Part shown: positions 22,818-63,516 of the stretch, one piece after another
Numbering within the stretch: the first letter of the stretch is position 1
Layout of the letters: every line of letters starts with the position of its first letter
DNA from: a virus
Reading direction: 5' to 3' (one strand)
Virus record (IMG/VR): IMGVR_UViG_3300020051_000004
DNA: 64,000 bases
Position numbers and translations under genes: made by a program
Notes under the pieces: generated by a model
The model's input: only the letters and a program-made list of their open reading frames with translations
Databases searched by the model: none
Told to the model about the DNA's origin: nothing

Positions 22818-23075
22818 TTAATAAGATAGTTCTTTTATGACTCGCCTGTACAGCTTAGCTTTTCCCTTGCAGTCATCTGAAATTGTAACGCAGTTTCCCC
22901 ATGCGTCGTATTTTTCTGAAAACGAAACGGTATTGACTGTCAATCTAGCGTATTCCTCCAGTTTCTCAGCTTCTTCAGTCAAGAGTCGCGCCAAAAATTT
23001 TGGCTTTTCAATGATCGTTTTAATATGTTCTCTTGCGTTCTCTGGGATTTTCATTAATGGGCTATTTTTATTCAC
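22818..23075 (-). CDS. Hypothetical protein
   Basis: 85 aa, GTGA overlap with the Clp ATPase stop. Confidence 0.55.
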   Translation of the reverse strand: MNKNSPLMKIPENAREHIKTIIEKPKFLARLLTEEAEKLEEYARLTVNTVSFSEKYDAWGNCVTISDDCKGKAKLYRRVIKELSY

Positions 23076-25396
23076 GACAGTTCGATTTTATTATTTTCAG
23101 CCTTTACATTAATGGTTTTTGGCCTCTTGTCAAGAATAAACTTTGCCAGCGGCACATCTAATTTTCGCCGCACTGTTGTTTGAATTTCTCGCGAGTGGGA
23201 GTTTTGGGCTTTAATTTCTTTTAGGAGCATCGGGGCCACACTAGAGTCAATAACCACTGACACGCCAGAGTCTCTTAGTTTTTCAACTGTTTGGTTAATG
23301 AACTTGTTTAGGATATTAGTCATCATTTCGTCACTCATATCCTTAAACACAACAATCTCATCTACTCGGGCTCGAAATTCGGGCGCGAAATCTTTTTGCG
23401 CCGCTTTTTCGTGATGATCTGTTGAAGGCTGAACGTTAAACCCAAGACTTTTTGGCGGCTCGCTTCCACTGTTTGTCGTGAGGATAACGATTGTGTTGGT
23501 GAAATCAACCCTGAACCCTTGACCATCAGTGAGATAACCGTCATCCATGATTTGGAGTAGGAGGTTGTGAATGCTTCTGTCTGCTTTTTCAATTTCATCG
23601 AATAGGACGACGCACGATGGATTATGCTTTACAAACTCAGTTAATCGCCCGCCATTTTCATATCCCACGTATCCAGCCGTTGTTCCAATGAGTGAAGAGC
23701 TAGAAAAACGCTCTGAGAACTCGCTCATGTCTAGTTTTAGGATAGCTTTTTCGTCTCCAAAATAATGAGCGGCCAAATCTTTTGAGAGTTGTGTTTTGCC
23801 GAGGCCAGTTCCTCCAACAAACATAAACTTTCCGAGTGGTTTGTTCTTATCTCTGAGTCCCACTTTTGAACATAGCAATACATCGCATACTTTGTCAATC
23901 GCGTGATCTTGACCAAAGATTGCGACCTTTAGTTTATCCGCCAACCCATCAATTCCAGACGTTTGCAGTTGTTTTAGTTGGTTTTCAGTGATTTTGTGTT
24001 TTTCGGCGAAAGTTGCTAAGGCTTTTTGAGGAGTAATCAGAGGAACGTTTTGTTCGATTTGTTCCATCCATTTGTTGAGTTTTTTGGCCCACTTTTCTAG
24101 CTTGCGATTAAATTTCTCAAACTCAGGAGAGTTTTCCTTCATGTTTGGGCTGACTTTATCTATAATGTTTTGCCACTCTTCGTGTAGTTTCGGCGGATGA
24201 GTAAAATGCTCATTTTTTGAACGCGCCCCAAGAAAATCTAGAGTGTCAAATGCCTTTTCTGGAAAACGGCGATATGGAACGAACTTTTCGCAAAGGTCTA
24301 AAACCATGTCGATTGTTTCGGGCGGGAACTCTGCAAAGTGACATTCTTCTAGTTCGTGAATGGAATTGATTAGAATTTGCCGCGTTTCTTCTTTTGTTGG
24401 CTCTTTGACTCTAATGATCTCAAAAAGGTTTGCCATTGACTGGTCTTTTTCAATGCTCTTTTTATAATCAGCCTGAGTAACCGTCGCAAGGCAAGAAACA
24501 TTTGGGCGGGCCAAAATACTTTTCAAAAAGTTGGACACATCACTTGGACCTTCTTTAAATCCGCTACCAGACACTACTTGGAAATCTGGGATAACCAATA
24601 CAGCATTACCATGGCTCGCTAATTCTTCTGACAAGTTTCGGAATCGACTTTCGATAGAGCCCATCATTGCTGTGCCAGCTACAACAGCCGTAACATCTAG
24701 TTCAAAAAATGTTTTGGCCCGCAATACTTCTGAGCTTTTGCCGCTGTTAATTTTTTCAATAACGCCGCGAATAATACTCTTACGGCCAACGCCCGCATCA
24801 CCAATCAAAACAGCGTTGCCCTTTTTATGTCGGCAAAGAATATCTAGGATATTGGAAATTTCTTCGGCGCGGCCATAAATTTTCTGAGGCTCAGTTCCGT
24901 ATTCAAATGATAAGTTTTTGCAGAATCTTTCGATTGTTGGAAAAGTTTCTTTGCCGCTTTCTTCGTCGTCACTTTCTGAGTTTCCTTTGAGGGTAAGCAT
25001 GTCAGATGTTTTCTCTAAGATACTTTCGATAGGATAATCGTAAATCCCGAAATAACTCCTAATAGTTGGCGAAGAATTAAGAATTTCGTGAAAAACATGC
25101 TCTGTATCAAAGAACCCAAAACCAAGAGTTTCGGCGGAATCTTGGGCTTCTTTTAGGACTGAATTATATTCTTCTTCGCAATCTTCAAAAATCTTTGGAA
25201 ACACTTCTGGCAACTTGTCGAGTAAACTGGCGCTAACAGCATCAGCGTCAATTCCAAATGTGGCCAATAAAAATTTAAACTTACTCTCCTTTAAGAGTTG
25301 CGCGAACAAATCGACAACATTGTTTGGGCGGCTATTCTTTTTTGCTGATTTTTCGGATTGTTCAAGATGGTAAAGAAGGCTGGGGGTTTTTTGCAT
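23072..25396 (-). CDS. ClpA/ClpB/ClpC-family AAA+ ATPase
   Basis: Clp N-domain (DTEHV), degenerate D1 and intact D2 (GGTGLGKT, LDMSEF, LIG...GYVGY, VLFDEIEKA, LLQIMDDG.LTD). Confidence 0.9.
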   Translation of the reverse strand: MQKTPSLLYHLEQSEKSAKKNSRPNNVVDLFAQLLKESKFKFLLATFGIDADAVSASLLDKLPEVFPKIFEDCEEEYNSVLKEAQDSAETLGFGFFDTEHVFHEILNSSPTIRSYFGIYDYPIESILEKTSDMLTLKGNSESDDEESGKETFPTIERFCKNLSFEYGTEPQKIYGRAEEISNILDILCRHKKGNAVLIGDAGVGRKSIIRGVIEKINSGKSSEVLRAKTFFELDVTAVVAGTAMMGSIESRFRNLSEELASHGNAVLVIPDFQVVSGSGFKEGPSDVSNFLKSILARPNVSCLATVTQADYKKSIEKDQSMANLFEIIRVKEPTKEETRQILINSIHELEECHFAEFPPETIDMVLDLCEKFVPYRRFPEKAFDTLDFLGARSKNEHFTHPPKLHEEWQNIIDKVSPNMKENSPEFEKFNRKLEKWAKKLNKWMEQIEQNVPLITPQKALATFAEKHKITENQLKQLQTSGIDGLADKLKVAIFGQDHAIDKVCDVLLCSKVGLRDKNKPLGKFMFVGGTGLGKTQLSKDLAAHYFGDEKAILKLDMSEFSERFSSSSLIGTTAGYVGYENGGRLTEFVKHNPSCVVLFDEIEKADRSIHNLLLQIMDDGYLTDGQGFRVDFTNTIVILTTNSGSEPPKSLGFNVQPSTDHHEKAAQKDFAPEFRARVDEIVVFKDMSDEMMTNILNKFINQTVEKLRDSGVSVVIDSSVAPMLLKEIKAQNSHSREIQTTVRRKLDVPLAKFILDKRPKTINVKAENNKIELS

Positions 25397-25677: not shown

Positions 25678-26859
25678 TTACTTCACTTGTGAAAGGCGGG
25701 TATAAATAGTTTCTTCGACAATTGAGAACTTGTCAATCATCAAAAGATCGCCAAACTTCTTCCCTACCACCGTTACCACAGAATCTTCTTCTGGCACTGG
25801 TAGTTTTTCTTCAAGGTGGCGGGACCATTTGTTGTCTTTGGCATTATCACCAAACATTCCAGATAGTTTGCCACTTTCATCAGAGATAGAAAGCATCATG
25901 TATTTATTGCCTTTTTTGGAGGTTGTCTTTTTTACTTCAGTCACTACTCCAACAATACGCACAGTTTCATTATCGTCAAGAGAATTAAACTCTAGAATGG
26001 GGGTAAAAGAGTGTTTTGACTCTTCAAACACTTCTCGTAAGGTATAACTGTATGAATACCCAAGCATTTCGCGCTCGAAATACCAGTTGCAGAATTTTTG
26101 GTGGCGAATGTTCTGGTCATAAATGGCTTTGTATTTACCATGCTCATCTCTCAACTTTTGAATACGCTTTTCAGTGAACGCGCTTTTGTTTTTTGCATTA
26201 ATGATTTTTCCTTCCGCGCCATCTTTTAGAGCGGCGAAAACGTCGTAATTATGATGCTCACCAAGCTCAAGAACAGCGAATTTTTCGTTCTCTGTGAGCT
26301 TATTAAACATCTGAGCTTCTAAGACCGTTTTGCAGCGATTTTCCCCAAAGGAATCCAAACATCCAGCCTGAATAAGAGTACAGAGAACGCCAATATTAAG
26401 CCCGCAGTCTTTGGCGGTTTGAAATACTTCGTACTTGTTTTTAAATTCGTGGCCGCGAAATGTTAGGAGGTTTTGGATGCTCTTTTCTGAGATTCCTTTG
26501 ATTGCATCCATGCCAAATCTTAAGTTGTTCCCCTCAATAGAGAAGCTTTCCTTTGATTTTGATAGGTCGGGCGGGAGAAGTTTAATATTAAACAGACCTA
26601 GCTCTTGGGTGATTTTAAACACTTCGGCGAGAGAATCTGGCTCATATTTAGACATTATGAGCAGTGATAGGAAAAACTCTTTAGGGTAATTGAATTTAAG
26701 ATACGTGCAAATTTCGGCAGTTGAGGCATAGGCGACGGCATGAGAATTACTGACGCAAATATCATTGCAGAAGAAATTATGATCTGGGTCGTCAATTTCT
26801 AAATCAATGGTGTTTTTAATTCCGATAGGTGTGATTTTTTTTATTTTGAATGCCTTCAT
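25678..26859 (-). CDS. dnaE: DNA polymerase III alpha, C-terminal half, preceded by split-intein C fragment (aa 1-38)
   Basis: Int-C ends HNFFCNDICVSN, then SHAVAY...YLKFNYP.EF, LRFGMDAIKGI (HhH) and a C-terminal OB fold. Confidence 0.93.
   Translation of the reverse strand: MKAFKIKKITPIGIKNTIDLEIDDPDHNFFCNDICVSNSHAVAYASTAEICTYLKFNYPKEFFLSLLIMSKYEPDSLAEVFKITQELGLFNIKLLPPDLSKSKESFSIEGNNLRFGMDAIKGISEKSIQNLLTFRGHEFKNKYEVFQTAKDCGLNIGVLCTLIQAGCLDSFGENRCKTVLEAQMFNKLTENEKFAVLELGEHHNYDVFAALKDGAEGKIINAKNKSAFTEKRIQKLRDEHGKYKAIYDQNIRHQKFCNWYFEREMLGYSYSYTLREVFEESKHSFTPILEFNSLDDNETVRIVGVVTEVKKTTSKKGNKYMMLSISDESGKLSGMFGDNAKDNKWSRHLEEKLPVPEEDSVVTVVGKKFGDLLMIDKFSIVEETIYTRLSQVK
26746..26859 (-). other. Split intein C-terminal fragment (38 aa)
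   Basis: Blocks F/G: TIDLEI...HNFFCNDICVSN, with +1 residue Ser. Confidence 0.9.
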
Positions 26860-27813
26860 TTGATATTATACTGCGTGCAAATTACCTTATACGATTTTCT
26901 AAAGAATGAATCTAAATCCTTTTCTTCTTTTAAAGAAGCTGCCAAAGCTATTGGTTTCTCCCCATCAAGGATAAAAAATCTATTTGAACGTAAATTTAGT
27001 CATATTGATAGTCGATTTGTTATTGACGGTAGAGATGAAATCTTAACCGTATTAAAGGATTTGTCAACTGGAAAAATTTACAAAACACTTAATTCTAAAA
27101 CATTGGGCATTTCTGCTGGGTTCAAGCCAACAAGAAAAGATATGCTTGCGTTTTGCACTTTAAAAAATAATCGTGCTTATATGGCGACAATAGGAGGAAT
27201 AAAATTTAAAAATCTTAATACCAATCCAGTTAAAGTTCAATCTTATTTAGATAAATACAACACAGAGAGTCGAAGGGCAAATCAAAAGGAAAACCGCGCA
27301 AAAAATATTGAAAGAGATAAAAAGAAAATGCAGGAATGGAAAGATCGGAATCGCGCTCATATGAGGAAGTATAATAATACCTATACTCTTTCCCGACGAG
27401 AGAAAGATATTTCTTTCAGAGTGAGGATGAACCTTCGTGCTCGATTAAGGATGGCTTTGATTGGAGAAACGAAGAGCGGTTCCATACTTGATTTAATGGG
27501 ATGTTCGATGGATTTTTTAAGAAATCATATCGAAAGTCAATTTATAGATGGTATGTCTTGGAATAACTACGCTAAAGTTTGGACCATTGATCATATTATC
27601 CCCTGTTCGTTTTTCGATTTGTCTATTGAAGACCATCAGAGAATGTGTTGTTATTATAAAAATTTGAGGCCGCTTTGTAAAATTGAAAATAGCAAAAAAT
27701 TCAATCATTTACCAGACAACTACCGAAGCTTTATCTCGGATAACCTCATTGAAGCATCGCTTTATCCCGTCACTGCATACAAACTTATGCTCGCTGGACA
27801 CGCGAATCTTTGA
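26860..27813 (+). CDS. HNH-type homing endonuclease, antisense, between the two dnaE halves
   Basis: LMGCS...HIESQF..GMSWNNY..W.IDHIIPCS.FDL...NLRPL...EN..K, a His-Me nuclease family common in large viruses. Start codon uncertain. Confidence 0.85.
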   Translation: MILYCVQITLYDFLKNESKSFSSFKEAAKAIGFSPSRIKNLFERKFSHIDSRFVIDGRDEILTVLKDLSTGKIYKTLNSKTLGISAGFKPTRKDMLAFCTLKNNRAYMATIGGIKFKNLNTNPVKVQSYLDKYNTESRRANQKENRAKNIERDKKKMQEWKDRNRAHMRKYNNTYTLSRREKDISFRVRMNLRARLRMALIGETKSGSILDLMGCSMDFLRNHIESQFIDGMSWNNYAKVWTIDHIIPCSFFDLSIEDHQRMCCYYKNLRPLCKIENSKKFNHLPDNYRSFISDNLIEASLYPVTAYKLMLAGHANL

Positions 27814-27990
27814 TCCATTTTCCAGTTCGACCTCAAAGATTTCTACCTTATTTTGATAAGTGTTTTTTACGGTAGTTTTTTTGCGTCTTTGAGCTTCAAT
27901 GTCCCATGAATATACGGAATCTCCAGAGAGTATGTCTTTAATCATTTTAGGGCCATCCTTCGTATTTACGATTTCGTCTTCAAAAATGCA
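27709..27990 (-). other. Split intein N-terminal fragment (93 aa)
   Basis: Block A CIFEDEIVNTKDG.K.IKDI..GD.V, block B IRVSSEHKF, then a stop codon. Confidence 0.9.
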
Positions 27991-29484
27991 GCGATTAAAT
28001 GAATAATCGGCAGAAGCAATCATGGCGTCCCAGAAAAATTTTGCCACCTCCTCGGGAATACCTTTTGCTTTTGCATTGTCAAAAATGACGGGTTTCCAGA
28101 CCTCCATTTCTTCTTTCTTTTTTTTGCCCGTTGCACGGCGCACGCTTTCTGCGTCCAGCAAAGACAGTCCGAATACTTCATGGCAGACCCTCATGATAGT
28201 TTCTTGGAAGAGAATTGTTCCTTTCGTCTCATCTAGGATTTTATCAAGTGATGGCCATCTTTTTTCTGAGTCCTTTAAGTGGTTTTTGACCTTAACGTAC
28301 TCATCCACAAAACTTAAACTGCCAGGACGACTTAGTGACAGGACATCGCTAAGCTCGTCTAGGTTTTTCGGCTGAACTTTCTGACAAACTTTGAAGCCAA
28401 CATCCGTCTCAATTTGAAAGATTCCTTGCGGAGCCAATAAATTTTGCAAGTGAATATATGTTTTCTCTTTTGGGATTTCAAAATCCTTAAAGTTAATTCC
28501 AACCATCTTAGCGGTTCTCTCAATTACCGATAATGTCCGAAGGCCAAGAATATCAAACTTTACCATTAATGAGCCAACATCACCCATTTCAAATCCAGAG
28601 ATTATCTCTCCATCTTTTGTTGATTGGAGCGGCATCATATCATCAATTTTTTGAGCGCAAATCGCTAATCCCGAAGGATGAACTCCCGTATTCTTTACCA
28701 AGCCTTCAAGTTTGCACGCTACGCGATAGGATTTTGGGTATTGCTTTACATATTTTTCAAACGCAGGGCTTTCCTCTATAGCCTTTTCAAAATCAAGTAC
28801 TTTGCCGAATTTTTTAGGAATTGTGGCGCTGACATGATTAGCTTCGTCTTCCGTAGTTCCATCAACAATTTTTAAACACTCGCGCATACACGCCTTGCCA
28901 CTCAATGTATTTAGAGTCAGAATTTTACTGGTTTGACCAGCAAATTCATCATTGATAAACTTTATCACTTTTTCGCGACTTTGAAATTCAATGTCGTGGT
29001 CGCAATCTGGAAGAAGCGAGCCGTCTAAATAGGTTTTGCCGTCGCTGCCAGCGATTTTTTTTGCGCGGTTTTTGGATACAAACCTTTCAAAATAGAGTTT
29101 ATTTGGAATTGGATCAACATGCGTAACCTTAAGCATGTACAGTACAGCGGAACCGACACAGCTTCCGCGCCCCTTGCCCGTCACAATCCCCTGCTCATCG
29201 CAGAAATTTAGAATTTTCCAATTTAAAAGAATGTATGGGCAAAAACCAAGTTCCTCAAATGTGGAAAGCTCATATTTGATGCGGTCATAATATTCTTGAG
29301 CATTGTCAAGTTTATCAATGCCCTTTTCCTTTACTCCTTCCCAGCATAGTTTCCGAAGGAAGTTAAAGTCGGAAATATTTGGCGAAACACCAAGTTTTTC
29401 GTAAAATCTTGGCTCAATTGATACGGAGGGCAGAATAACGCCCTCTGCCAATGGCTTGTTTAGTGGTTGGAAGTCTTCAAACAT
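27709..29484 (-). CDS. dnaE: DNA polymerase III alpha, catalytic N-terminal half (no PHP), fused to split-intein N fragment
   Basis: GKGRGS.VGS, FERF, PDCDHD, GVHPSG, KFDILGL, GIFQ, RPG and FQE motifs; ends ADYSFNR followed by intein CIFED. Confidence 0.95.
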   Translation of the reverse strand: MFEDFQPLNKPLAEGVILPSVSIEPRFYEKLGVSPNISDFNFLRKLCWEGVKEKGIDKLDNAQEYYDRIKYELSTFEELGFCPYILLNWKILNFCDEQGIVTGKGRGSCVGSAVLYMLKVTHVDPIPNKLYFERFVSKNRAKKIAGSDGKTYLDGSLLPDCDHDIEFQSREKVIKFINDEFAGQTSKILTLNTLSGKACMRECLKIVDGTTEDEANHVSATIPKKFGKVLDFEKAIEESPAFEKYVKQYPKSYRVACKLEGLVKNTGVHPSGLAICAQKIDDMMPLQSTKDGEIISGFEMGDVGSLMVKFDILGLRTLSVIERTAKMVGINFKDFEIPKEKTYIHLQNLLAPQGIFQIETDVGFKVCQKVQPKNLDELSDVLSLSRPGSLSFVDEYVKVKNHLKDSEKRWPSLDKILDETKGTILFQETIMRVCHEVFGLSLLDAESVRRATGKKKKEEMEVWKPVIFDNAKAKGIPEEVAKFFWDAMIASADYSFNRCIFEDEIVNTKDGPKMIKDILSGDSVYSWDIEAQRRKKTTVKNTYQNKVEIFEVELENGSKIRVSSEHKFVCSDGIKRCFNEVIRDKASVVVW

Positions 29485-29713
29485 ATTTGTTATCTTTTTC
29501 TGAAATCCAAACAGCAAGGCAGTAACGCTGCTTTTCGGATAAAAATTTGTGGGTTTGGTAGTGGTTTCTAATTGATTTTAATTTTTCGCTTCTAGCTCCA
29601 GATGAAGCGACGAAAAGTTTTTCATCACTCATGTCAAGGTAATCTTCTGGACGAGAGAAGTCATCATTAAAAAGACCACTCCAAAAATTAGGAATCCAAT
29701 CTTCTGCTGCCAT
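29477..29713 (-). CDS. Hypothetical protein
   Basis: 78 aa ORF overlapping the dnaE start. Confidence 0.55.
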   Translation of the reverse strand: MAAEDWIPNFWSGLFNDDFSRPEDYLDMSDEKLFVASSGARSEKLKSIRNHYQTHKFLSEKQRYCLAVWISEKDNKYV

Positions 29714-30152: not shown

Positions 30153-30785
30153 TTAAATATTTTCTCCGTCGTCGTATCGACTTGGGTTAGTTTTGGGGTA
30201 CGATTTTACTACAGGGTAGGATAGTTTGTCAAGCATTATTTTCTTGCTTCTTTTGTCGCCGCAGAGAAAAAAGTATCGGTGTTTAGGCTCAGGTTTCAGG
30301 GTTTGGATTTTGTTTTGTTTTGCCCACTGTTTTAAATTTGTAACGCCGAATCTGTCTCTCACCGTCATGGGATGAAGTCGCTCGCCATTTACCAAGTAAG
30401 AGTGGTCGTGAGATTTTGTAGCGCCTGTGTAGAGCCAATTTGTAGCTTGATACACGAACCCGCAGTGATTCCATTCGCTATCAGCGTAAGATACAACGGC
30501 GCACGGTTTTTCGAGCATTTTAAGAGAGTTGCCGATTAAAAAGCTTGCGGCGTTCTTTTCTTTTGTTTGAATGACTAAGCGGCTCAACTCAAATAGGCGA
30601 AAATCTCTATCTTTGAATGCGTGTTTTTGAATTGGTGGCGAAGGTTGCCCATAAACAACGACACCTTCGAGTTTGCTGTTAATCTCTAAACCAAAACCCG
30701 CCCAAAAAATGGACGGGCGGCGCGAATAATGTTTTTTAGAAACCCAAAGGTCGGCGGTTTGTTTGGTGACTGGTACTACCTTCAT
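30153..30785 (-). CDS. mom: Mom-like DNA modification enzyme (GNAT fold)
   Basis: KKHYS, GVVVYG, ELSRL, ASFLI, VSYAD...H.G.VYQATNWLYTG and KHRY motifs of the Mu Mom family. Confidence 0.8.
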   Translation of the reverse strand: MKVVPVTKQTADLWVSKKHYSRRPSIFWAGFGLEINSKLEGVVVYGQPSPPIQKHAFKDRDFRLFELSRLVIQTKEKNAASFLIGNSLKMLEKPCAVVSYADSEWNHCGFVYQATNWLYTGATKSHDHSYLVNGERLHPMTVRDRFGVTNLKQWAKQNKIQTLKPEPKHRYFFLCGDKRSKKIMLDKLSYPVVKSYPKTNPSRYDDGENI

Positions 30786-53986: not shown

Positions 53987-54172
53987 ATGGACTTCTCAAC
54001 CATCCTGAATAAATCAAAAAACTACGCATTTGCTTTTCTAAACGAGCAAAATGTAGAATGGCGCGTCTCAGAAATTGATGGCCGCAAACAAGTTGTCACT
54101 AGAGACTATAACCCTGAACGGCTGAATCTTGTAGTGAGAAATGATAGAGTAGTAGATTTCACTCTTGGTTGA
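53987..54172 (+). CDS. Small protein resembling I78/potato-I peptidase inhibitors
   Basis: VTRDYNPERLNLVV....V....G C-terminal signature. Confidence 0.6.
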   Translation: MDFSTILNKSKNYAFAFLNEQNVEWRVSEIDGRKQVVTRDYNPERLNLVVRNDRVVDFTLG

Positions 54173-54173
54173 T

Positions 54174-54443
54174 ATGGAGACGAACGAACAACACAACCAA
54201 TCAGAGCTAGATTATTTATTGGGCCGCGCAAATTTTTGTTTGAGCAGCCTTGAAACAATTTTGCATACTCTCAATAAGAATTTCCCAGTTGATGGATGTA
54301 AGTGGGCCGTCTGGGAGAATCAGGTTGATTGTGTTCGTTTTGAAGATTTGGAGTGGGACGAATTTGAGGAGCCTAATGAGCCAAAATGTTCCAAGGGACC
54401 ATTCTTTGATGAACAGGATCAGGAGTTTTATTTGCGCCAATAA
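54174..54443 (+). CDS. Hypothetical acidic protein
   Basis: ORF in operon. Confidence 0.55.
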   Translation: METNEQHNQSELDYLLGRANFCLSSLETILHTLNKNFPVDGCKWAVWENQVDCVRFEDLEWDEFEEPNEPKCSKGPFFDEQDQEFYLRQ

Positions 54444-54447
54444 ACCT

Positions 54448-54627
54448 ATGAACAAAACAACAATCAACGACGCCATAAAAATCCTCCAAGATTTAAAAGA
54501 AGAGGTTGGCGGAAATGCTGTTTTTATTGTATTTGGCATACATGGAGACAGAGAATATCCCAAAGGATGGAATTCTCTCATCAGAATTAAGGACAATGAA
54601 GAATTTGAGGAGTTTTATTTAACATGA
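54448..54627 (+). CDS. Hypothetical protein
   Basis: ATG 54448 follows the upstream stop; ATGA overlap with the next gene. Confidence 0.5.
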   Translation: MNKTTINDAIKILQDLKEEVGGNAVFIVFGIHGDREYPKGWNSLIRIKDNEEFEEFYLT

Positions 54628-55175
54628 TTAAAAACATTTTACTCGATATGGACTCCGTGATAGCGGATTTCCTTCCGTCAGCACTTCGCGTATTAAATAG
54701 AAAGTATCGCAAAGACAATCCTGCGACAATAAAAGAATATCAGGAATACGGTCAGTTTAGTATAGCTGATTTTTATGGCATTTCCAAAGAGCAATTCTGG
54801 GCGGCGATTGATTCAGATCAGTATTTTTGGATTAATATACAACCATTTCCTTGGGCCGCTCAGTTAGTTGGGTTTTTAAATGAATTTGCCCCTGTTACTA
54901 TTGCCAGTTCTCCGCATACTTCAAGAATTTGTATTGCTGATAAAGTTGAATGGCTTCAAAAGCATTTAAACATTAAGAGCGAAGGGTGTATGTTTGGCGC
55001 AAGAAAGTATTTAATGGCCAATCCAGAGACTTTATTGATTGACGACCTTCAAAGTAATGTGGATGATTTTATAACTTACGGAGGAAAAGCCATTTGCGTT
55101 CCATCGAACTGGAATACTGAAAACCTTTCATTTGAAATGATCGTAGCAAAAATTGTAAAAGGAGGACTTGTTTAA
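54624..55175 (+). CDS. 5'(3')-deoxyribonucleotidase (HAD, NT5C-like)
   Basis: LLDMDSVIADF, ASSP, K..WL and LLIDD. Confidence 0.85.
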   Translation: MIKNILLDMDSVIADFLPSALRVLNRKYRKDNPATIKEYQEYGQFSIADFYGISKEQFWAAIDSDQYFWINIQPFPWAAQLVGFLNEFAPVTIASSPHTSRICIADKVEWLQKHLNIKSEGCMFGARKYLMANPETLLIDDLQSNVDDFITYGGKAICVPSNWNTENLSFEMIVAKIVKGGLV

Positions 55176-55747
55176 TGACTATCTACGCAGTGGCAGGAAA
55201 GAAGAGAGTGGGCAAATCAACGCTGACACAAGGCTTCATCAACCATTTTGAAAAACTTGGATTGCGGGCAAAAAATTATGCTTTTGCAGATGAGCTGAAG
55301 AAGGAACTTGATCCTCTTTTCTTGTTGAATGCGGGAGTATCAGCGTTCACAGAAGACCCAGTGGAGAAAGAGTTGTGCAGGGGTGTAATGATTGCATACG
55401 GCACAGGTTATTGGAGACAAAAAGACCCCGACCATTGGATAAAAAAACTTGCGGCCCAATTAAAAAAGGACGAAGGAGAAGTTGATGTTGCAATAATTTC
55501 TGACGCCCGTTTTGCCCAAAATGAAATTCCATGGGTTAAAAGTCTTGGCGGCAAAATCATTTATTTGATTCGCACTGACGACGAAGGTAAAGAATTTCCG
55601 CCCGCTGGAATTGATGAAGAAATCAATGATCCAGAATTAAGAAAGGCCGCTGATTTTATTTTTTCTTGGGGAAATTACGAGAATAATCTAGAAAAATGCT
55701 ATTATACTGCAAGCAACTGGCTTAGCGAAATTTTAGCACATGGATGA
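55175..55747 (+). CDS. Deoxynucleoside monophosphate kinase-like P-loop kinase
   Basis: GKKRVGKST, FADELK, R...IAYG..R..DPDHW and ISDARF..NE. Confidence 0.8.
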   Translation: MTIYAVAGKKRVGKSTLTQGFINHFEKLGLRAKNYAFADELKKELDPLFLLNAGVSAFTEDPVEKELCRGVMIAYGTGYWRQKDPDHWIKKLAAQLKKDEGEVDVAIISDARFAQNEIPWVKSLGGKIIYLIRTDDEGKEFPPAGIDEEINDPELRKAADFIFSWGNYENNLEKCYYTASNWLSEILAHG

Positions 55748-56309
55748 TTATTCTTTAGTAATGAAAGTAAAAGAAACTGGCGATAGTTCAGCCATGGCTC
55801 AAATAATTGCTCAGCATTCTGGTGTATTTACAACCGTGCTCGAAAAGTCTTTGCCAGCAGACACTTTCTCAACTCAGAGACAAGACTTTTTGGCCGAAAA
55901 GTCGTTTCATTTGTATGACGCTGTAATGAAATATCGCCCTGATAGTAAAATGAAGCTTTCAACCTTTATTGGCCAAACTATCAAGTGGAAATGCTTATCC
56001 TTAAAAGATCGCGGCCAAGATAAAGACACCGTTTTTCTTGAATCTTTAGATAATCCGCCGCCTGAAAAAGAAGAAGAATGCAGCGACAAAAAGTTCAAAA
56101 TCGAACAAATCTTTCAATTCGCTGAAAATTATCCAAACGAAACCGCAAGAAAAATCGTAACACTGCGTTATGATAGCAAGAACCACCTTCCATGGAAGGA
56201 AGTCTCAAAAAAATTAGGAATTTCAGTTGCACAAGCTACTCGTTTGAACTATGAGTTCTTAAATGCTGCGAAAGCTCACTTCTCAAACGCCGAAGGGCTT
56301 CAGGGTTAA
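55740..56309 (+). CDS. Phage sigma70-family factor
   Basis: D..LV..VK..GD..A...I..H, AVMKY.P...KLSTFI (region 2) and C-terminal HTH WKEVSKKLGIS. Confidence 0.75.
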   Translation: MDDYSLVMKVKETGDSSAMAQIIAQHSGVFTTVLEKSLPADTFSTQRQDFLAEKSFHLYDAVMKYRPDSKMKLSTFIGQTIKWKCLSLKDRGQDKDTVFLESLDNPPPEKEEECSDKKFKIEQIFQFAENYPNETARKIVTLRYDSKNHLPWKEVSKKLGISVAQATRLNYEFLNAAKAHFSNAEGLQG

Positions 56310-56320
56310 TTTTATAAGAT

Positions 56321-56632
56321 ATGAAAATCATCAGCCACCAATGTTTAATCGTTTTACAAAACGATGACGACTTTAAACTTTCCACCGAAAACTTTAAGCC
56401 AGCCAAAATTAACTTTTCCGCCACAAAAGAGTATGTTGTAGATAACCACAAGGTGGACTCTATACCCTTGCATTATTACGAAATTGAAGAATCGCCCGTT
56501 GAATTTTTAAATAAGCAACTTATCTATTTTGCTGGTCCGCTTTTTCGCTCTATAAAAAGAGAGGATTTACTCCCAGCTTTCCTTGAAGAAAGAAATAACT
56601 TCTTGTCTAAAGCGAAAAACCTGCTAGAATAA
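56321..56632 (+). CDS. Hypothetical protein
   Basis: 103 aa ORF in operon. Confidence 0.6.
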   Translation: MKIISHQCLIVLQNDDDFKLSTENFKPAKINFSATKEYVVDNHKVDSIPLHYYEIEESPVEFLNKQLIYFAGPLFRSIKREDLLPAFLEERNNFLSKAKNLLE

Positions 56633-56637
56633 AATTT

Positions 56638-56895
56638 ATGAGAAACATTGATGATGAAATAAAAATGTGGGAAGAAATTTTCCGCAAAGAAAAAGAAATT
56701 TACGACAGACTCTCTCCGTCATTAAAAACCAACGTCGAGTTGGAAACTTGGCACGAAGCTATAAGTCATCTTCACACTGCTCAATCAAATATTGATAAAT
56801 TGCACAAACAGAAGAGGTCTGACTATCTTGACGCTCTTAATGACATTTTTAAGAAAAATATGGCAGAATCAAACCAACCAACAAATCACCCCTAA
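56638..56895 (+). CDS. Hypothetical protein
   Basis: 85 aa ORF in operon. Confidence 0.6.
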   Translation: MRNIDDEIKMWEEIFRKEKEIYDRLSPSLKTNVELETWHEAISHLHTAQSNIDKLHKQKRSDYLDALNDIFKKNMAESNQPTNHP

Positions 56896-56901
56896 AAACA
56901 C

Positions 56902-57279
56902 ATGCTAACCATCCAATCCGTAGGTAATCTCGTTAACGATCCAAAACTCGTTACTCTCAAAGACGATTTCAAAATTGTCGAATCTCGAATCGCCGTCACA
57001 AAGTCCAAAGATCGCTCTGCCTTTATTGACGTAAAGTTTAAGAATAATAAAGCGGGCGAAATCTTTCTTCAATACGCAAAACAAGGCTCTGGAGTCTCCG
57101 TGTGGGGAGAGCTTGACGAAGAAACTTGGGGAGAGGGAGAAAACAAGCGTAGTAAATGGGTAATCGTTGCTGATGGTTTCCGATTTACAGGAGGTCAGAA
57201 GTCAGATGACAAACCTGCGGCCAAAACCCAAGTGCCAAAGAAATCTGTTCAAGACAGTACCGAGGACATTCCTTTTTAA
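56902..57279 (+). CDS. ssb: Single-stranded DNA-binding protein
   Basis: VGNL..DP, G..V.V.G.L...W and acidic EDIPF tail. Confidence 0.92.
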   Translation: MLTIQSVGNLVNDPKLVTLKDDFKIVESRIAVTKSKDRSAFIDVKFKNNKAGEIFLQYAKQGSGVSVWGELDEETWGEGENKRSKWVIVADGFRFTGGQKSDDKPAAKTQVPKKSVQDSTEDIPF

Positions 57280-57292
57280 TGAAAAATCTAAT

Positions 57293-57368
57293 TGCGGGAT
57301 AGAGAAATTGGTTATCTCATCAGTCTCATAAGCTGAAGTTTTCCGTTCAAGTCGGAATCCCGCAACCA
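57293..57368 (+). tRNA. tRNA with CAT anticodon (Met, initiator-like features)
   Basis: Acceptor TGCGGGA/TCCCGCA plus ACCA; D stem GAGA/TCTC; anticodon arm TCAGT-CTCATAA-GCTGA; T arm TTCCG-TTCAAGT-CGGAA. Confidence 0.93.
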
Positions 57369-57394
57369 CTTCACAATCAACCAACTAAAAACAC

Positions 57395-57685
57395 ATGCCC
57401 GAAGAAAAACTAACAAAGAAAGAAAAGTCAGTTGAAGCAGCCTTTGCTGAAATTCAGCCAGCTTCAACCAAGACCGTTCCAGCGGTAATCGAAGAAACAA
57501 TCCTTGAACCAAGGACAATCGAAATCGCCCCCGATTCTCCATGGAAGAAGATTCACTCAGATAGCGCCATTACAACTTTCACTATGGAAGTAAAAGGAGC
57601 AGGAACAATCTTGCGAACACAAACATATGGCTCGGAATCAATGGTATTCCTACCTAACGTTTTGGCGTCGCAGCTTCCTAAGTAA
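57395..57685 (+). CDS. Hypothetical protein
   Basis: 96 aa ORF with an AAAAACAC leader, inside the RNA gene cluster. Confidence 0.7.
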   Translation: MPEEKLTKKEKSVEAAFAEIQPASTKTVPAVIEETILEPRTIEIAPDSPWKKIHSDSAITTFTMEVKGAGTILRTQTYGSESMVFLPNVLASQLPK

Positions 57686-57770
57686 AAGATTAGGCATTGC
57701 GCCGAGGTTGGTTTGCCTTGGTTAATTCATCGGCCTGTGGGTAAGCGCATAAAACCCCACACTTCTGATT

Positions 57771-57935
57771 TTCCTATTAAGGAAGTTGGCTTAGAAGCAG
57801 CCATCTTTTAAAGAGTAATGATCTAAACTGGTCGGAGTGTTCCTGTTACCTAGTACAACATAGAATAACGGCAAATAGCTCTTCTGTTTCTCATGTACGA
57901 GTTCAGGTTTTGGCGTAACAGCACACTTTTTGGGA
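57771..57935 (+). ncRNA. 23S rRNA GTPase-associated-centre (H42-H44) mimic RNA with internal insertion
   Basis: AGGAAGTTGGCTTAGAAGCAGCCATCTTTTAAAGAG (57780-57815) and GCGTAACAGCACACT (57913-57927) match the L11-binding domain; closed by its own stem 57772-57781/57926-57935. Confidence 0.8.
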
Positions 57936-57954
57936 TCATTTTTTAAAAAAAATA

Positions 57955-58021
57955 GGCGGCGCTTGATTATGGCACCTTGAATGAGGTTCTTTAAAATAAC
58001 AGCGAGTTAACCCGCCAACCA
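57955..58021 (+). ncRNA. Putative small RNA with acceptor-like stem and 3' CCA
   Basis: GGCGG...CCGCC-AACCA followed by CTT, like the neighbouring tRNA. Body folds as a long hairpin, not a cloverleaf. Confidence 0.35.
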
Positions 58022-58030
58022 CTTTCTACC

Positions 58031-59119
58031 ATGCAGTATATTCTCGAAACTCCAATCAACAGCCTCTCCTTGGGGCAAATTGGCTTCAACCTCCTCAAAG
58101 CTTCTTTTGAAGCGGGCCATGATGTTGCCTTATTCCCTATTTCAGGAGACAGCAACAAACCTCTAGAGGCTGACTTTTCTGCTTATGAAGTAGAAGAAAG
58201 TTTCGGGAATTACATTCGAGAAGCAGTCTCAAAAAGATACTCGTTCTTGGAAAAAGACGCTCCCGCAATTAGAAACTGGCACTTGAACGGCAGCGATTTG
58301 TTGAGAACAAACAACCAAGTGTTGTTAACTTTCCATGAGACGAATTATGCTACACCAGTAGAAGTCTCTATCGCTAACCTCCAAAAGAAAACTCTTTTTT
58401 GCGGCAATTTTTCCGAGAAAGTTTTTAAAAATTTTGGGGCCGAAAATGTTGGGTCGTTCAATGTAGGATTTGATTCTTCGTTTAAGCATGAAGGAAAAAC
58501 AATTCGCGCCTCTGATGTTTCTTTTTTACTTGGCGGCAAATTTGAATCGCGCAAGTTCACCAAGAGACTTTTAAATCTTTGGGCAAAAAAATTTGGCAAC
58601 AATAAGAAATATTCTTTGAATTGCCTGATCTTTAATCCATTTTTCTCTCCTGATGATAATTCTAAGCTCATCAATGATGCTCTAGAGGGAAAGAGATATT
58701 GGAACATTAATTTTTTGCCGCGTTTAAGAACAAATAAAGAAGTTGCGGCGCTTTTGGCTGCTTGTGATGTTGATTTGAGCGCGTTTGGCGGAGAGAGTTG
58801 GGGTATGGACGCATTTAACATGACATGCCTAGGTAAATGGGCCGTTTCTAACGTTTCTTGGGGCCAAGCAGCATGGGCAGATGAAGCTAATTCAGTAACA
58901 GTGTCCACTGATAAACTGCGGCCCGCTCCAGATGGGGCGTTTTTCCATCCAAACGGAGATTTTAATCAAGGTTATTTCCCAGAACTTTCGGATGAACAAA
59001 TCATTGACGCTCTTGAGAGAGTTGAAGCTAAGGCTGGAACTGTTAATGAGAATGGGTTGCAATTAGCAGAACGGATGACTTATTCAAAAACGTTGGAGCA
59101 AATTTTGTCTAATTTCTAA
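58031..59119 (+). CDS. Glycosyltransferase, GT-B/GT4-like
   Basis: FHET, GKFESRK, LNCLIFNPF and GESWGMDAFN..CLGK (E-x7 motif variant). Confidence 0.75.
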   Translation: MQYILETPINSLSLGQIGFNLLKASFEAGHDVALFPISGDSNKPLEADFSAYEVEESFGNYIREAVSKRYSFLEKDAPAIRNWHLNGSDLLRTNNQVLLTFHETNYATPVEVSIANLQKKTLFCGNFSEKVFKNFGAENVGSFNVGFDSSFKHEGKTIRASDVSFLLGGKFESRKFTKRLLNLWAKKFGNNKKYSLNCLIFNPFFSPDDNSKLINDALEGKRYWNINFLPRLRTNKEVAALLAACDVDLSAFGGESWGMDAFNMTCLGKWAVSNVSWGQAAWADEANSVTVSTDKLRPAPDGAFFHPNGDFNQGYFPELSDEQIIDALERVEAKAGTVNENGLQLAERMTYSKTLEQILSNF

Positions 59120-59124
59120 AAGAC

Positions 59125-59343
59125 ATGTTAAACTGGCAAAAAGATTACGACGATTCGTGGAATACTTCTTGGCGGGCCGAAAGCAAGCGGCTCGCCTTTT
59201 GGCGTTTAAGTCAAAAACTAGAGAGCGACCAAATCTGGTGGTATGAATCTCACGACCCCGAATTAGCCGATGATTGTCCATGTGAATGGGACAACCTCGC
59301 TGACGCAAAAGAATACATCCAAGAACAAGAAGACTCCCTCTAA
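59125..59343 (+). CDS. Hypothetical protein
   Basis: 72 aa acidic, Trp-rich ORF. Confidence 0.55.
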   Translation: MLNWQKDYDDSWNTSWRAESKRLAFWRLSQKLESDQIWWYESHDPELADDCPCEWDNLADAKEYIQEQEDSL

Positions 59344-59741
59344 TGGCATTATACGATTTTGAACATATCCGAACTGGCGAGATACAAACCGTCTTTTTCC
59401 GCATGAATGACGAGAAAATTTATTGCGGCCCAAATAATGATCAAAAAGGAGAATGGCGCAGAATTTTCACTGTTCCAAATGCTGCTATTGATTGTAAAAT
59501 TGATCCATATTCTAAAACCGAGTTTGTTGAGAAGACGCGCAATAAAAAAGGCAGCGTTGGAGACTTGATGGATGAAAGTGCCCGACTCTCAAAAATCCGC
59601 GCCGAAAAAAATGGCCAAGACCCTATTAAAGAAGGCTTCCTAAAGAAGTATAAAAAGGACACTGGTAAAGACTACAAATCCTTGGATAAGAATAAAACCA
59701 TTGAAGGTAAGGGTTTCAAGGTTGATTTTGGGGCAAGTTAA
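59343..59741 (+). CDS. FmdB-like regulatory protein (degenerate Zn ribbon)
   Basis: M.LYDFEH..TGE...VF..MND...W.RIF..P N-terminus. Confidence 0.5.
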   Translation: MALYDFEHIRTGEIQTVFFRMNDEKIYCGPNNDQKGEWRRIFTVPNAAIDCKIDPYSKTEFVEKTRNKKGSVGDLMDESARLSKIRAEKNGQDPIKEGFLKKYKKDTGKDYKSLDKNKTIEGKGFKVDFGAS

Positions 59742-60591
59742 GCTCTTTCTCCCAAGCAGATAGTTCAATTTTGCCGCAGTAATCCGAGAAGTGATTTCTC
59801 ACGGGATCAGCGTCTAATCCTAGTTCGTGAAATCCAATCAGGTAATTCTGATATTTGTTCTTGACCGACATTGGATATGGAATTTTATCTGGCCGCGAAA
59901 AACGATGATTCCATCTAAGAAAAGGGGCGCATAAAACTTTTTTGCCCGCTTGTCTATATTTTTCTGCAATGTAGAACTCTTCGCAGCCAAAACCCTTGAA
60001 TTTTTTAGAAAACCCTATCCAAGAATTCTTGCGGCAAGAAAATAATCCGAGTCCCTGCATGGGAATCTCAAAAGGTTCAGCGGCGGAATCTTTTCCCCTA
60101 TCATCGCAATCCCATTTTCCAAACATTTGAGTTCCCCATTCTGGTTTAAAATGAGTGGCGATATTCTTTAAATCGTCATATAAAAGCGGCCCTTGGATTA
60201 GGTTCCCGCTGTCCTCTCCACGGTCATAAAAGGAAATGAGTTTTTTTAAAGCGCCGCTTTCAATTAAGACGTGGCAATCCATGCACAAAACCGCTTCCGC
60301 ATTAGACTCTGAGAAAACTTTTTCGCGGGAAGATGTTCCAGTCACTTCCTCATAAGGAACATACTTAATTGGCTCTTTTATCCACTTACAAAATTCTTTT
60401 ACAGCTTTTCCGTGCTCTGATCTTGGGTTATTATCAATAATGACAAACTCAACGTCACTCAACACCTCACTGTGGAACATTCGTATCGCTTGAATGGAGA
60501 AATACACACCATGGAAGTCATCAAACGTGCTCATTCCAATGGTTAGTTTCTTAGGTGTAGAAATTTTAGCAATCACAATTATACTAACCAA
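59716..60591 (-). CDS. Glycosyltransferase family 2
   Basis: LTIGM.TFDD, VIIDN, CMDCH (DxH), GLGLF and F.GFGCEE. Confidence 0.82.
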   Translation of the reverse strand: MVSIIVIAKISTPKKLTIGMSTFDDFHGVYFSIQAIRMFHSEVLSDVEFVIIDNNPRSEHGKAVKEFCKWIKEPIKYVPYEEVTGTSSREKVFSESNAEAVLCMDCHVLIESGALKKLISFYDRGEDSGNLIQGPLLYDDLKNIATHFKPEWGTQMFGKWDCDDRGKDSAAEPFEIPMQGLGLFSCRKNSWIGFSKKFKGFGCEEFYIAEKYRQAGKKVLCAPFLRWNHRFSRPDKIPYPMSVKNKYQNYLIGFHELGLDADPVRNHFSDYCGKIELSAWEKELNLPQNQP

Positions 60592-61127
60592 TTTAATTGG
60601 CCGCTTTTAGATAATTTGTCGATTATCTTTTTTTCTTCTTCTGGTTGATGTAGGGAACCTCTTATAGCGTTGTCTCCAAAATGATGACGCTCTCTATTCT
60701 CCCACCAATCAAATCCAGTGATAAAAACTGATTCGCGGCTCTTTAAATAATACCAAATGGCTAAAAGACCCGTAGAAAAACCATAATACTTTGTGCCGCC
60801 GAACTGTTGAAGCTCAAAAATCCATTGTTCTTGGCTTTTGAATATTTTTTTGGCCGAAATTATTGGAGAAAAACGCTGCCACAATTTATCTTTTTGCGGT
60901 GAAAATTGCCATGAATGAAGGCAAACCTCTGTATAATCCTTCGATAACAAAGGATGATGGGGCTGAACAAAAGAAACCGTGTTCCACCAATGAGTAGTTT
61001 TTTCGCCTGTAAAAGGTTCAAAACCCTTAATCTTGTAGTCGTTAAACCTAACAATAGATTTAAACGAGTCTATCTTAGTTCCCAGTTTTTTGTCCAGAAT
61101 AGAAGGGCCATTTCCAACGATGATCAC
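60579..61127 (-). CDS. GT29 (sialyltransferase-like) protein
   Basis: Sialylmotif L-like IIVGNGPS.....G..IDS...VRFN....F....G.KT, motif S-like STGL.AI...V.ITGFD and VS-like H....E. Confidence 0.75.
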   Translation of the reverse strand: MIIVGNGPSILDKKLGTKIDSFKSIVRFNDYKIKGFEPFTGEKTTHWWNTVSFVQPHHPLLSKDYTEVCLHSWQFSPQKDKLWQRFSPIISAKKIFKSQEQWIFELQQFGGTKYYGFSTGLLAIWYYLKSRESVFITGFDWWENRERHHFGDNAIRGSLHQPEEEKKIIDKLSKSGQLNWLV

Positions 61128-62128: not shown

Positions 62129-62647
62129 TTGAGTAATATAAGGGAAGCAATTAGCCTTATTTACACAGTGAACTATCCCATCTACAAAGGAAATAAAAAA
62201 AATACTGGAAACTGCGCAAGTTTTCAACTTTCAAACGATAAAAAGTCCTTTTGGATTAAAGCTGTAAACCAGTTTTCGTGGGACGAAAGCAAGCCAGGAC
62301 AAAATAAAGCTTCTTTCAAGGAAAATGCTCGGAATCCAGATAAGTCTATTTCGGTCAAGGTTAATCCTACGGAGCTTGGAGGAATTATTTTTGCATTGGA
62401 TAATTGGGAGCCATGGGAAACAGTTCATAAATACGAAAAGAATGGTCAAAATTTCACTACAAGCATTAAAATCGGAGTTTGGAATCGCCCTGACAATCCA
62501 AAAGGTAACGCAATGTCTTTGTCCATCACACAAGGAGAGAAGAAATTTGGAGTAGCCCTTGAAAAAGGAGAATTGAAAGTTGTTAAAATTATGATGGAGT
62601 CGGCAGTTGTAGAAATGCTTAAATCTGGATGGGTTGAAGAGGAATAA
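62129..62647 (+). CDS. Hypothetical protein, possible ssDNA-binding (PC4/Whirly-like) fold
   Basis: Repeated beta-beta-beta-beta-alpha pattern (..ELGGII / ..GELKVV). Start uncertain. Confidence 0.45.
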   Translation: MSNIREAISLIYTVNYPIYKGNKKNTGNCASFQLSNDKKSFWIKAVNQFSWDESKPGQNKASFKENARNPDKSISVKVNPTELGGIIFALDNWEPWETVHKYEKNGQNFTTSIKIGVWNRPDNPKGNAMSLSITQGEKKFGVALEKGELKVVKIMMESAVVEMLKSGWVEEE

Positions 62648-63516
62648 TGGCCGTGGAAGACAAATTAAGGTCTATAACTTTTGGTATAGCTAATGCCTAT
62701 AAACATCGTGGTGGGATTTACCAGTTAAAAAGCAAGCATAATGGTAAATTTTATATTGGCTCTGCCGCGTCTTTCTATAATAGGCTACACACGCACTCTC
62801 ATCACTTGAGGGAGGAAACCCATTTTAACGATCATTTAATTGCCCATAAAAATAAATATGGAATTGAAGATTTAGTTATGGAGGTTCTTGAATTTGTGGA
62901 TAACACGAATGAAAATTTGATTCGCCGCGAACAATGGTGGTTAGATAATACTGATTGTTTAAATAGAGAGGTTGGCTTTAATAAATGTCCCACGGCACAG
63001 TCTCAGTTGAATCGCGAGATGCCAGACACACATCGTCAAAAAGTAGGCAATCGGTCAATTGGCAATAAATATTGCGTGGGAAGAAAAGCGTCCGAGGAGA
63101 CGAAATTAAAAATTAGTAAAATTCAGGGATTGCCTATTGCTAGGTATAATTGGGATGGAACTCTTATGAGCGTTTATGAAACACCAATGCTTCTTAGAAA
63201 AGCTGGACATTGTGCGGAGAGTGTCCGAAAAGCTTGTAAGGGTATCGCAAATTACAAAAAATCTCTCTGGAGAGTTATTTTGCCAGATCAAGAAATTCGA
63301 GATTTAACGCCCGAAGAGATTAATAACCCAATTTTTAAAGTAAAAAAGAAAAGAATTAATCATTTAGTAGGGGGTCAATTAATAGGTTTATATTCGACAG
63401 TGAAAGAGGCCGCTAAATCCACAGGAATTCCTCATCATAAAATCAGAACCTTATGCAACGGAGAAAGAAAATCATTTAATGAAGTTGATTTTAAATACGA
63501 ATTTTTTTATGAGTAA
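62647..63516 (+). CDS. GIY-YIG homing endonuclease with NUMOD3/NUMOD1 modules
   Basis: GIYQL....GKFYIGSA...R...H...REQWWLD...GFN; SEETKLKIS; YSTVKEAAK.TG. Confidence 0.92.
   Translation: MAVEDKLRSITFGIANAYKHRGGIYQLKSKHNGKFYIGSAASFYNRLHTHSHHLREETHFNDHLIAHKNKYGIEDLVMEVLEFVDNTNENLIRREQWWLDNTDCLNREVGFNKCPTAQSQLNREMPDTHRQKVGNRSIGNKYCVGRKASEETKLKISKIQGLPIARYNWDGTLMSVYETPMLLRKAGHCAESVRKACKGIANYKKSLWRVILPDQEIRDLTPEEINNPIFKVKKKRINHLVGGQLIGLYSTVKEAAKSTGIPHHKIRTLCNGERKSFNEVDFKYEFFYE

Follow-up and report, generated by a model that had tools for sequence, protein, structure and literature searches.

A likely stand-alone RNA gene in phages, built on a split copy of the uL11-binding domain of 23S ribosomal RNA

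Is a stretch of ribosomal sequence lying between two protein-coding genes of a phage a relic of host DNA, an artefact of assembly or a gene in its own right, and, if a gene, what might be gained by imitating a piece of the ribosome? The question arises from a window of 64,000 nucleotides of viral DNA (IMG/VR virus record IMGVR_UViG_3300020051_000004), in which the 345-nt gap between the ORFs 57395-57685 and 58031-59119 holds, on the plus strand, two blocks that resemble part of 23S rRNA. We lean towards reading 57772-57935 (+) as the gene of a stand-alone non-coding RNA of ~165 nt: its ends would fold as a free-standing copy of the 23S uL11-binding domain, as in a large family of phage elements, and it would act in trans, with host uL11 as its most likely ligand. 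The features on which the argument draws are these:

57293-57368, plus strand: tRNA-Met (ARAGORN and Rfam), ~400 nt upstream of the element and the only tRNA in the window
57772-57781, plus strand: closing stem, 5' strand, in place of the tip of 23S helix 42; G57781 is the equivalent of G1055; its partner is 57926-57935
57781-57816, plus strand: 5' block, equivalent to 23S 1055-1090, 34/36 identical to genuine 23S rRNA
57783-57807, plus strand: helix 43 in the 5' block, carrying the A1067 loop (A1067 is 57793)
within 57781-57816, plus strand: the U1082-A1086 pair and the 5' strand of helix 44 (G1087, A1088, G1089, U1090), also in the 5' block
57817-57912, plus strand: insert of 96 nt between U1090 (57816) and G1091 (57913)
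57821-57827 with 57902-57908, plus strand: basal helix of the insert, six pairs and one A-C mismatch
57834-57838 with 57878-57882, 57843-57848 with 57866-57871, and 57890-57892 with 57899-57901, plus strand: three inner helices of the insert, from the alignment with the relative L032
57908-57912, plus strand: U-rich linker UUUUG at the end of the insert, a feature of the family
57913-57926, plus strand: 3' block, equivalent to 23S 1091-1104, 12/14 identical to genuine 23S rRNA
within 57913-57926, plus strand: helix 44 with its GUAACA loop (A1095 is 57917), C1092-G1099, A1101, C1102, A1103 and C1104
57926-57935, plus strand: closing stem, 3' strand, complement of 57772-57781
57936-57944, plus strand: UCAUUUUUU run directly after the closing stem, read from the sequence; a possible transcription stop of the window copy

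Set against a Bacillota-type 23S sequence, as in locus L004, the 5' block is the sole site of its kind in the 64 kb and was matched in none of 100 shuffles, and its two differences from 23S rRNA, A1058 and U1080, jointly flip a single base pair. The identity of the 3' block was equalled in 23/100 shuffles and is not significant by itself; its significance comes solely from its position, its orientation and the evidence of the family. A first-pass annotation of this DNA had already reported both blocks, one base out in its coordinates and with counts of 33/36 and 13/15. The similarity ends at G1055 and C1104, beyond which lie phage genes, and, as that annotation had proposed, the place of helix 42 is taken by an unrelated stem that still pairs (8/10 standard pairs with two U-U mismatches, or 7/9 without G57781-C57926). 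Inside these borders the helix 43 pairs 1057-1081, 1058-1080, 1059-1079 and 1062-1076 through 1065-1073 are all formed, whilst helix 44 (1087-1102, 1090-1101, 1091-1100, 1092-1099) and its six-base A1095 loop are present at 57813-57816 and 57913-57924, with the insert interrupting them between 1090 and 1091. Both functional loops are intact, UUAGAAG around A1067 and GUAACA around A1095, and the insert closes on itself through its basal helix, so that these earlier observations stand as well.

Could the letters alone have told us that such a structure forms? By thermodynamic folding, neither the element as a whole nor its parts did better than shuffles (z = -0.3 to -0.7), and the minimum-energy fold of the element breaks the copied domain, so that energy alone is uninformative here. 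Rfam matched only the tRNA in the window, at gathering thresholds and also at E = 10, giving the element no non-rRNA family, and no rRNA was found elsewhere in the window. As for its transcription, no promoter was found adjoining the window copy and the terminator scan did not call the U-run at 57936-57944; a promoter-like site does stand ahead of the next gene (58031-59119), which begins 95 nt downstream of the element. Considering the UCAUUUUUU run after the closing stem together with this promoter-like site, the window copy probably ends a transcription unit. The U-run is not a trait of the family: at least five U stand at that place in 20/162 members among the matches listed.

It is the family that allows the element to be judged. 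IMG/VR was scanned with three sequence patterns, of which one took the 5' block as its anchor and the other two the 3' block. Together these scans yielded at least 163 distinct members, all with the same split, a UUUG linker and a closing stem of their own; in the first scan, contigs longer than 80 kb made up about half of the total. As the members were collected by sequence patterns, the conservation figures given below are inflated, and covariation is unaffected. The window carries all five features of the family, namely the 5' block 1055-1090, the insert after U1090, the U-rich linker ending in G, the 3' block with A1101 and its own closing stem. When the gap was compared by blastn with 50,697 phage records, the arrangement of the window recurred in Aeromonas phage 4_4572, Ralstonia phage RSP15 and Vibrio phage 2.275.O, each with the 5' block, an insert of 170-240 nt, the 3' block and its own closing stem, in unannotated DNA. 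A looser search adds Pseudomonas phages pf16, UNO-G1W1, Milchi and Astolliot, Cronobacter phage GAP32, Pectobacterium phage CBB, Xanthomonas phages XacN1 and XbC2, Acinetobacter phage ME3, Serratia phage BF and several Erwinia jumbo phages, bringing the cultured phages with the element to more than a dozen. In RSP15 (L002, ~1830-2060) we also noted, directly after the element, an unannotated stretch of ~200 nt with a tRNA-like 3' end, GGTTCGATTCC, which precedes ORF121 and, further downstream, an annotated tRNA-Ser; this stretch may encode a further structured RNA, for instance one resembling a tmRNA or a tRNA.

Not every match in a phage database is of this kind. The match in the record of Paenibacillus phage Pd_22F (L004; MZ092003.1 82477-85513) is genuine 23S rRNA, ~2.6 kb of it and unannotated, and served us as a reference; many records of 2-7 kb named as Staphylococcus, Listeria, Escherichia or Salmonella phages are likewise rRNA fragments, and all these rRNA-bearing records are probably host DNA. 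In the opposite direction, searching one genome per bacterial species with a word from the 5' block returned mostly genuine rRNA of Mollicutes and CPR bacteria, with split copies making up six among the first 120 matches listed, and from this scarcity we take the element to be essentially phage-borne. The six copies in bacterial assemblies (L417, in the complete chromosome NZ_CP175559.1 of Acidithiobacillus sp. M4-SHS-6, and L366, L405, L416, L429 and L470) are presumably prophages, and could provide host assignments for the family. Nor are the elements fresh captures from a host: the copy of phage ME3 departs from the 23S rRNA of Acinetobacter at over ten positions, the base triple described below included, which marks the elements as a phage lineage. 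Carriage is dispensable, as the element is absent from 29 phage relatives found through the neighbouring gene (33-41% identity). The family is absent from Rfam 15 and we found no description of it in the full-text literature searched; to that extent, we could not find these split copies of the uL11 domain described before.

Does selection act on the fold? Across the 163 members listed, the helix 43 pairs, 1082-1086 and the first four pairs of the closing stem are canonical in 83-100%, with up to five pair types each, and covariation is seen at 1057/1081, 1058/1080, 1063/1075, 1064/1074 and 1082/1086, the last with four pair types. In helix 43, 98% of cells are paired and four pairs show compensatory changes, and the closing stems contribute a median of 8 further pairs, compared with 2 when partners are swapped between members. 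When 44 members whose inserts do not exceed 100 nt were aligned with MAFFT, pairing was seen in 93% of cells vs 32-53% with partners slid, and there were 229 double-sided changes vs 80 +/- 7 in shuffles, the observed number being reached in none of 500 shuffles (covariation score 0.59 vs 0.16). A covariance model, R1, built from phage copies only, gives the window, which is among its training sequences, 100 bits, and untrained members from cultured phages 64-71 bits; run on the 23S rRNA of Salmonella and of Paenibacillus, the same model picks out the genuine centre at 51-57 bits (E ~1e-12 to 1e-14), and nothing else in those rRNAs. The fold is under selection, and the first-pass proposal of a selected, free-standing imitation of the uL11- and thiostrepton-binding domain gains strong family-wide covariation.

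The tertiary structure leaves its own signature, here judged by covariation only. Position 1072 and the pair 1092-1099 form what we take, after Draper and Gutell, to be a base triple known from crystal structures (the other tertiary contacts are likewise those of the crystallographic literature), and they change in concert: C with C-G in 98 members and U with U-A in 63, with two mixed, so that 161/163 of the members listed follow the rule, as do 37/37 in the set anchored on the 5' block only. Both states occur inside five separate groups of similar inserts, which means that the switch happened repeatedly. Among the 44 aligned members, 1092-1099 is C-G in 26 and U-A in 18, and the window, with C1072 (57798) alongside C1092-G1099, obeys the rule. 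Tertiary positions other than the triple are kept in 96-100% of the members listed: a purine at 1056 stands opposite A1103 in 156/163 (G in 113, A in 43), U1060 goes with A1088 in 158/163 and does not pair with 1078, and G1071 is found in 161/163. The loops, which touch factors and thiostrepton, are held more loosely than this core. A1067 is A in 118/163 (72%) and A1070 in 131/163 (80%) of the members listed, and A1095 in 32/37 (86%) of the 5'-anchored set; in rRNA, A1070 is invariant (PMC6239185).

The insert is a different matter from the domain that it splits. Across the 163 matches listed its length ranges from 26 to 422 nt (median 138), and inserts are hypervariable, falling into 101 similarity groups. 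Among the matches listed only one relative shares the insert of the window: L032, from an 18-kb IMG/VR contig, whose insert is 78% identical. Comparing them shows six pairs in which both bases differ and pairing is nonetheless kept, three in the closing stem and one in each inner helix of the insert, and 95% of cells in their alignment are paired vs 36-53% with partners slid. A 16-base pattern from the insert had 41 matches in IMG/VR, and the domain accompanied it in none besides L032.

Some inserts seem to add a second ribosomal motif. A sarcin-ricin-like hairpin of the AGUACGAGAGGA type occurs in 12-13/163 members listed, with stems that differ and yet remain complementary, in inserts that are all longer than 250 nt and nearly all longer than 300 nt; the reverse-complement control gave one match. 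It is present in the inserts of L100, L118, L181, L182, L190, L201, L207, L242, L252, L268 and L272, where it looks like a copy of the sarcin-ricin loop beside the copied uL11 domain. A blastn search of all inserts against the whole of 23S rRNA for further imitated regions returned noise equal to its minus-strand control. For the window itself, we considered and rejected a sarcin-ricin copy in the insert: the best 14-mer match is 8/14, and three matches of 7-8 nt to the sarcin-ricin region sit in loops or helices that differ in L032. Two further motifs were seen amongst the inserts. CCCCGUAA(C/A)UGGUAAGG recurs near the 3' end in L001, L005, L013, L158 and ~20 more, which make up the largest insert group, and the word GGUAA stands ~15-20 nt ahead of the UUUGG linker in many otherwise unrelated inserts (alignment A2); the window copy lacks this feature.

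Where does the element sit? A tRNA lies within 1 kb in 102/163 members listed, on the strand of the element in 102/102, and these same-strand tRNAs fix the strand of the element itself; in 59/163 a tRNA adjoins it within 30 nt, on either side, and the flanking tRNAs have ~19 identities. This linkage and common strand suggest co-transcription with tRNAs and release by tRNA-processing enzymes, and we infer that a discrete RNA is expressed. The first-pass annotation had placed the window copy among tRNA and small-RNA genes, of which the tRNA-Met on the same strand was borne out, and no other Rfam match was found in the window. It had also read a stress-signalling theme into a MazG-like gene in the same plus-strand block; no ORF of 53987-59741 has such a match in Pfam or PHROGs, and that link falls away. 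Next to the window element, the ORFs encode an SSB, a nucleotidase, a kinase and proteins of unknown function, and no ribosomal-protein gene was found near it. Indeed, all-vs-all clustering of 2074 neighbouring ORFs within 4 kb gave no consistent protein partner, only HNH, TerD and unknown families in at most 13/161 loci, and four carriers among the cultured phages, examined as complete genomes, have no uL11 gene. With no linked protein family and no uL11 gene in those carriers, the partner of the RNA is most likely a component of the host.

The window is phage DNA, encoding a 2252-aa tape-measure protein, a ClpB-like ATPase, a DnaE-type polymerase and a DnaB-like helicase, along with both ribonucleotide reductase subunits, SSB, a nucleotidase and a dNMP kinase; its DnaE-like polymerase is at most 32% identical to that of any cultured phage. 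Several of its other genes deserve a record of their own. The DnaE-type polymerase lies in two ORFs, 27709-29517 (-) and 25678-26859 (-), with ORF 26860-27813 (+) between them; the first ends in a weak intein-splicing match (residues 524-585, below the Pfam cut-off) and the second has the HHH_6 and OB domains of the DnaE C-terminus, such that the polymerase gene may be split or interrupted by an intein. A protein of the Mom family, a DNA modification family, is encoded at 30153-30785 (-), and the ClpB-like protein at 23072-25396 (-) is a double AAA+ ATPase that PHROGs names an ATP-dependent protease. Two glycosyltransferase genes (GT2 and a sialyltransferase-like GT29) and one for a GIY-YIG endonuclease lie within 59716-61127 (-) and 62647-63516 (+).

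What, then, would such an RNA do? We propose that the phage-specific closing stem would bring the ends together into an autonomous 23S 1051-1108 domain (helices 43 and 44 and the tip of helix 42), which we take to be the minimal uL11- and thiostrepton-binding "GTPase-associated centre", with a variable accessory domain inserted between U1090 and G1091. Transcribed from the same strand as the tRNAs, and in the window at the end of a plus-strand gene block, the RNA would act in trans off the ribosome, offering its fold to a cellular ligand; host uL11 is the most likely one because it recognises exactly this fold. uL11 binds the domain only in its tertiary fold, and the domain folds autonomously (PMC6239185). 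The extent of the copied part coincides with this autonomously folding, uL11-bound domain, and, as the factor-contacting loops vary more than the structural core, a ligand that reads the fold (for example uL11) rather than the loops is most likely on the pattern of conservation. Helix 42 proper, which is needed by L10, was not copied; only its last few pairs are imitated, by stems without conserved sequence, which speaks against the earlier suggestion that L10(L12)n would bind as well.

At the ribosome, RelA activation, stimulation of factor GTPases and RF1-dependent termination all depend on uL11. Were uL11 captured, or a uL11-RNA complex presented, these functions would be changed, possibly as a relC-like loss of RelA activation, altered stimulation of factor GTPases or weaker RF1-dependent termination. 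It counts against a sponge for uL11 that most cellular uL11 sits on ribosomes, and either a very high level of the RNA, or uL11 that is newly made or exchanging, would be required. If the insert carries the function, the copied domain could be a mere chassis for folding or protein binding, and the sarcin-ricin-like hairpin found in about one in thirteen members speaks for translation GTPases, or for enzymes directed against the factor site, and not for uL11 alone. A tentative extension, to which we give appreciably less credence than to the reading with which we began, is that the uL11-loaded RNA serves as a weapon in the form of a free, factor-docking "spare ribosome part": it would either withhold uL11, leaving the host relC-like and with no stringent response, or capture a host factor or defence enzyme, with the insert as a lineage-specific add-on that in the large forms includes the sarcin-ricin loop. 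If true, this would be the first trans-acting imitation of a functional centre of rRNA.

Other roles in trans deserve to be weighed. Perhaps the RNA is a decoy substrate that soaks up a toxin of host defence or of a competitor (an ADP-ribosyltransferase, nuclease or methyltransferase) aimed at the GTPase-associated centre, and so spares the ribosomes. The sarcin-ricin loop, of which some members add a likeness, is a classic target of ribotoxins; the distribution of the element is patchy, and its dispensability among related phages is typical of counter-defence genes; and the 1093-1098 loop is mostly kept (A1095 in 32/37). Against this, we know of no anti-phage system aimed at this centre, the presumed target loops are more variable than the core, and neighbour clustering over 161 loci revealed no linked immunity or toxin gene. 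Enzymes that attack this very site do exist, in that the Rhs toxin Tre23 ADP-ribosylates 23S rRNA at ~1095-1098 in helix 44 and blocks EF-G, but its activity was shown on ribosomes and rRNA (PMC8661411), and overall we consider a decoy unlikely. We are equally doubtful that the RNA, alone or with uL11, docks EF-G, IF2, RF3, RelA or the elbow of an incoming tRNA as a trap or mis-activator and diverts them from host ribosomes. The window copy has both factor-contacting loops intact, and the 12-13 relatives with the sarcin-ricin-like hairpin would unite both halves of the factor site in one RNA; however, the window copy has no such motif (the matching letters of its best 8/14 are not kept in L032), A1067, A1070 and A1095 vary in the family, and factors are not known to bind the isolated domain more than weakly without the rest of the ribosome.

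The remaining alternatives would remove the trans-acting RNA altogether. As a cis-acting element, the sequence would be a processing, stabilising or uL11-sensing signal for a nearby tRNA or mRNA, in the manner of the ribosomal-protein leaders that imitate rRNA, and its place ~400 nt after a tRNA and 95 nt before the next gene, like the members that abut a tRNA within 30 nt, would suit such a role. Yet the neighbours vary by locus with no gene consistently downstream, the adjoining tRNAs are of many identities and lie upstream or downstream, the U-run and promoter-like site of the window separate the element from the next gene, and no ribosomal-protein gene is nearby, all of which makes this very improbable. 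That the element is a dead fragment of host 23S rRNA, or a chimera of assembly, might be suspected from the several "phage" database records, L004 among them, that do hold genuine pieces of rRNA. This we regard as the least credible account by far: the similarity stops exactly at the borders of the domain and comes with a closing stem of its own, no other rRNA lies in the window, the copy in the cultured phage ME3 differs from the rRNA of its host, and the same split and linker recur in at least 163 relatives with compensatory and triple covariation, by which this account is refuted.

If this RNA acts as we propose, it would represent a new viral route to the control of translation, in which a ribosomal RNA centre is copied instead of a protein being encoded. 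This large family has members in phages of Pseudomonas, Acinetobacter, Aeromonas, Vibrio, Ralstonia and enterobacteria that can be cultured, which makes the idea directly testable, and the window copy, as a compact form of the family, is a convenient construct. The family also supplies more than 100 natural variants of one of the best-studied tertiary folds in RNA, repeated coordinated switches of the triple included, and its tolerance of insertion at 1090/1091 is of use for work on RNA folding and engineering.

How does the element compare with what is known? With the GTPase-associated centre of 23S rRNA (E. coli 1051-1108; the uL11/thiostrepton domain of 58-60 nt) it shares the same helices, 1082-1086, the non-canonical G1056-A1103, U1060-A1088, the triple and both hairpin loops. 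Unlike that centre, it is no part of an rRNA, and the stem that closes it is short and of arbitrary sequence; the split at U1090/G1091 is made, in the window copy, by a 96-nt domain that includes the U-rich linker; position 1101 is A where rRNA has U; and A1067, A1070 and A1095 are free to vary across the phage family. The large form of the family, in which the uL11 domain is joined by a sarcin-ricin-like hairpin, differs from the window copy by that hairpin. As a phage-borne non-coding RNA, often in tRNA regions, the element resembles GOLLD and ROOL, large structured phage RNAs found beside tRNAs, and, as a presumed imitation acting on host machinery or defence, it resembles the decoy RNAs of phages and viruses such as the pseudo-ToxI antitoxin mimic (PMC3475682); in contrast to all three, it imitates a functional centre of the ribosome, and it has no relation to them in sequence or in Rfam. 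The leaders of ribosomal-protein mRNAs (the L10 leader, RF00557, and the L1 and S8 sites) are likewise off-ribosome copies of protein-binding sites of rRNA, with competition for a ribosomal protein as the likely shared logic. Such leaders are cis-regulatory, lie in the mRNA of the protein that they bind and copy local motifs only, whereas the phage RNA gene copies a whole tertiary domain almost base for base, with no Rfam match and no ribosomal-protein gene nearby. Finally, phages are known to encode ribosomal proteins, including uL11 itself in cyanophage PhiMa05 (PMC13157829; PMC6375957), which shows that phages do interfere with the stalk-base region of the host ribosome; there the means is a protein gene, and in the family described here it would be an RNA.
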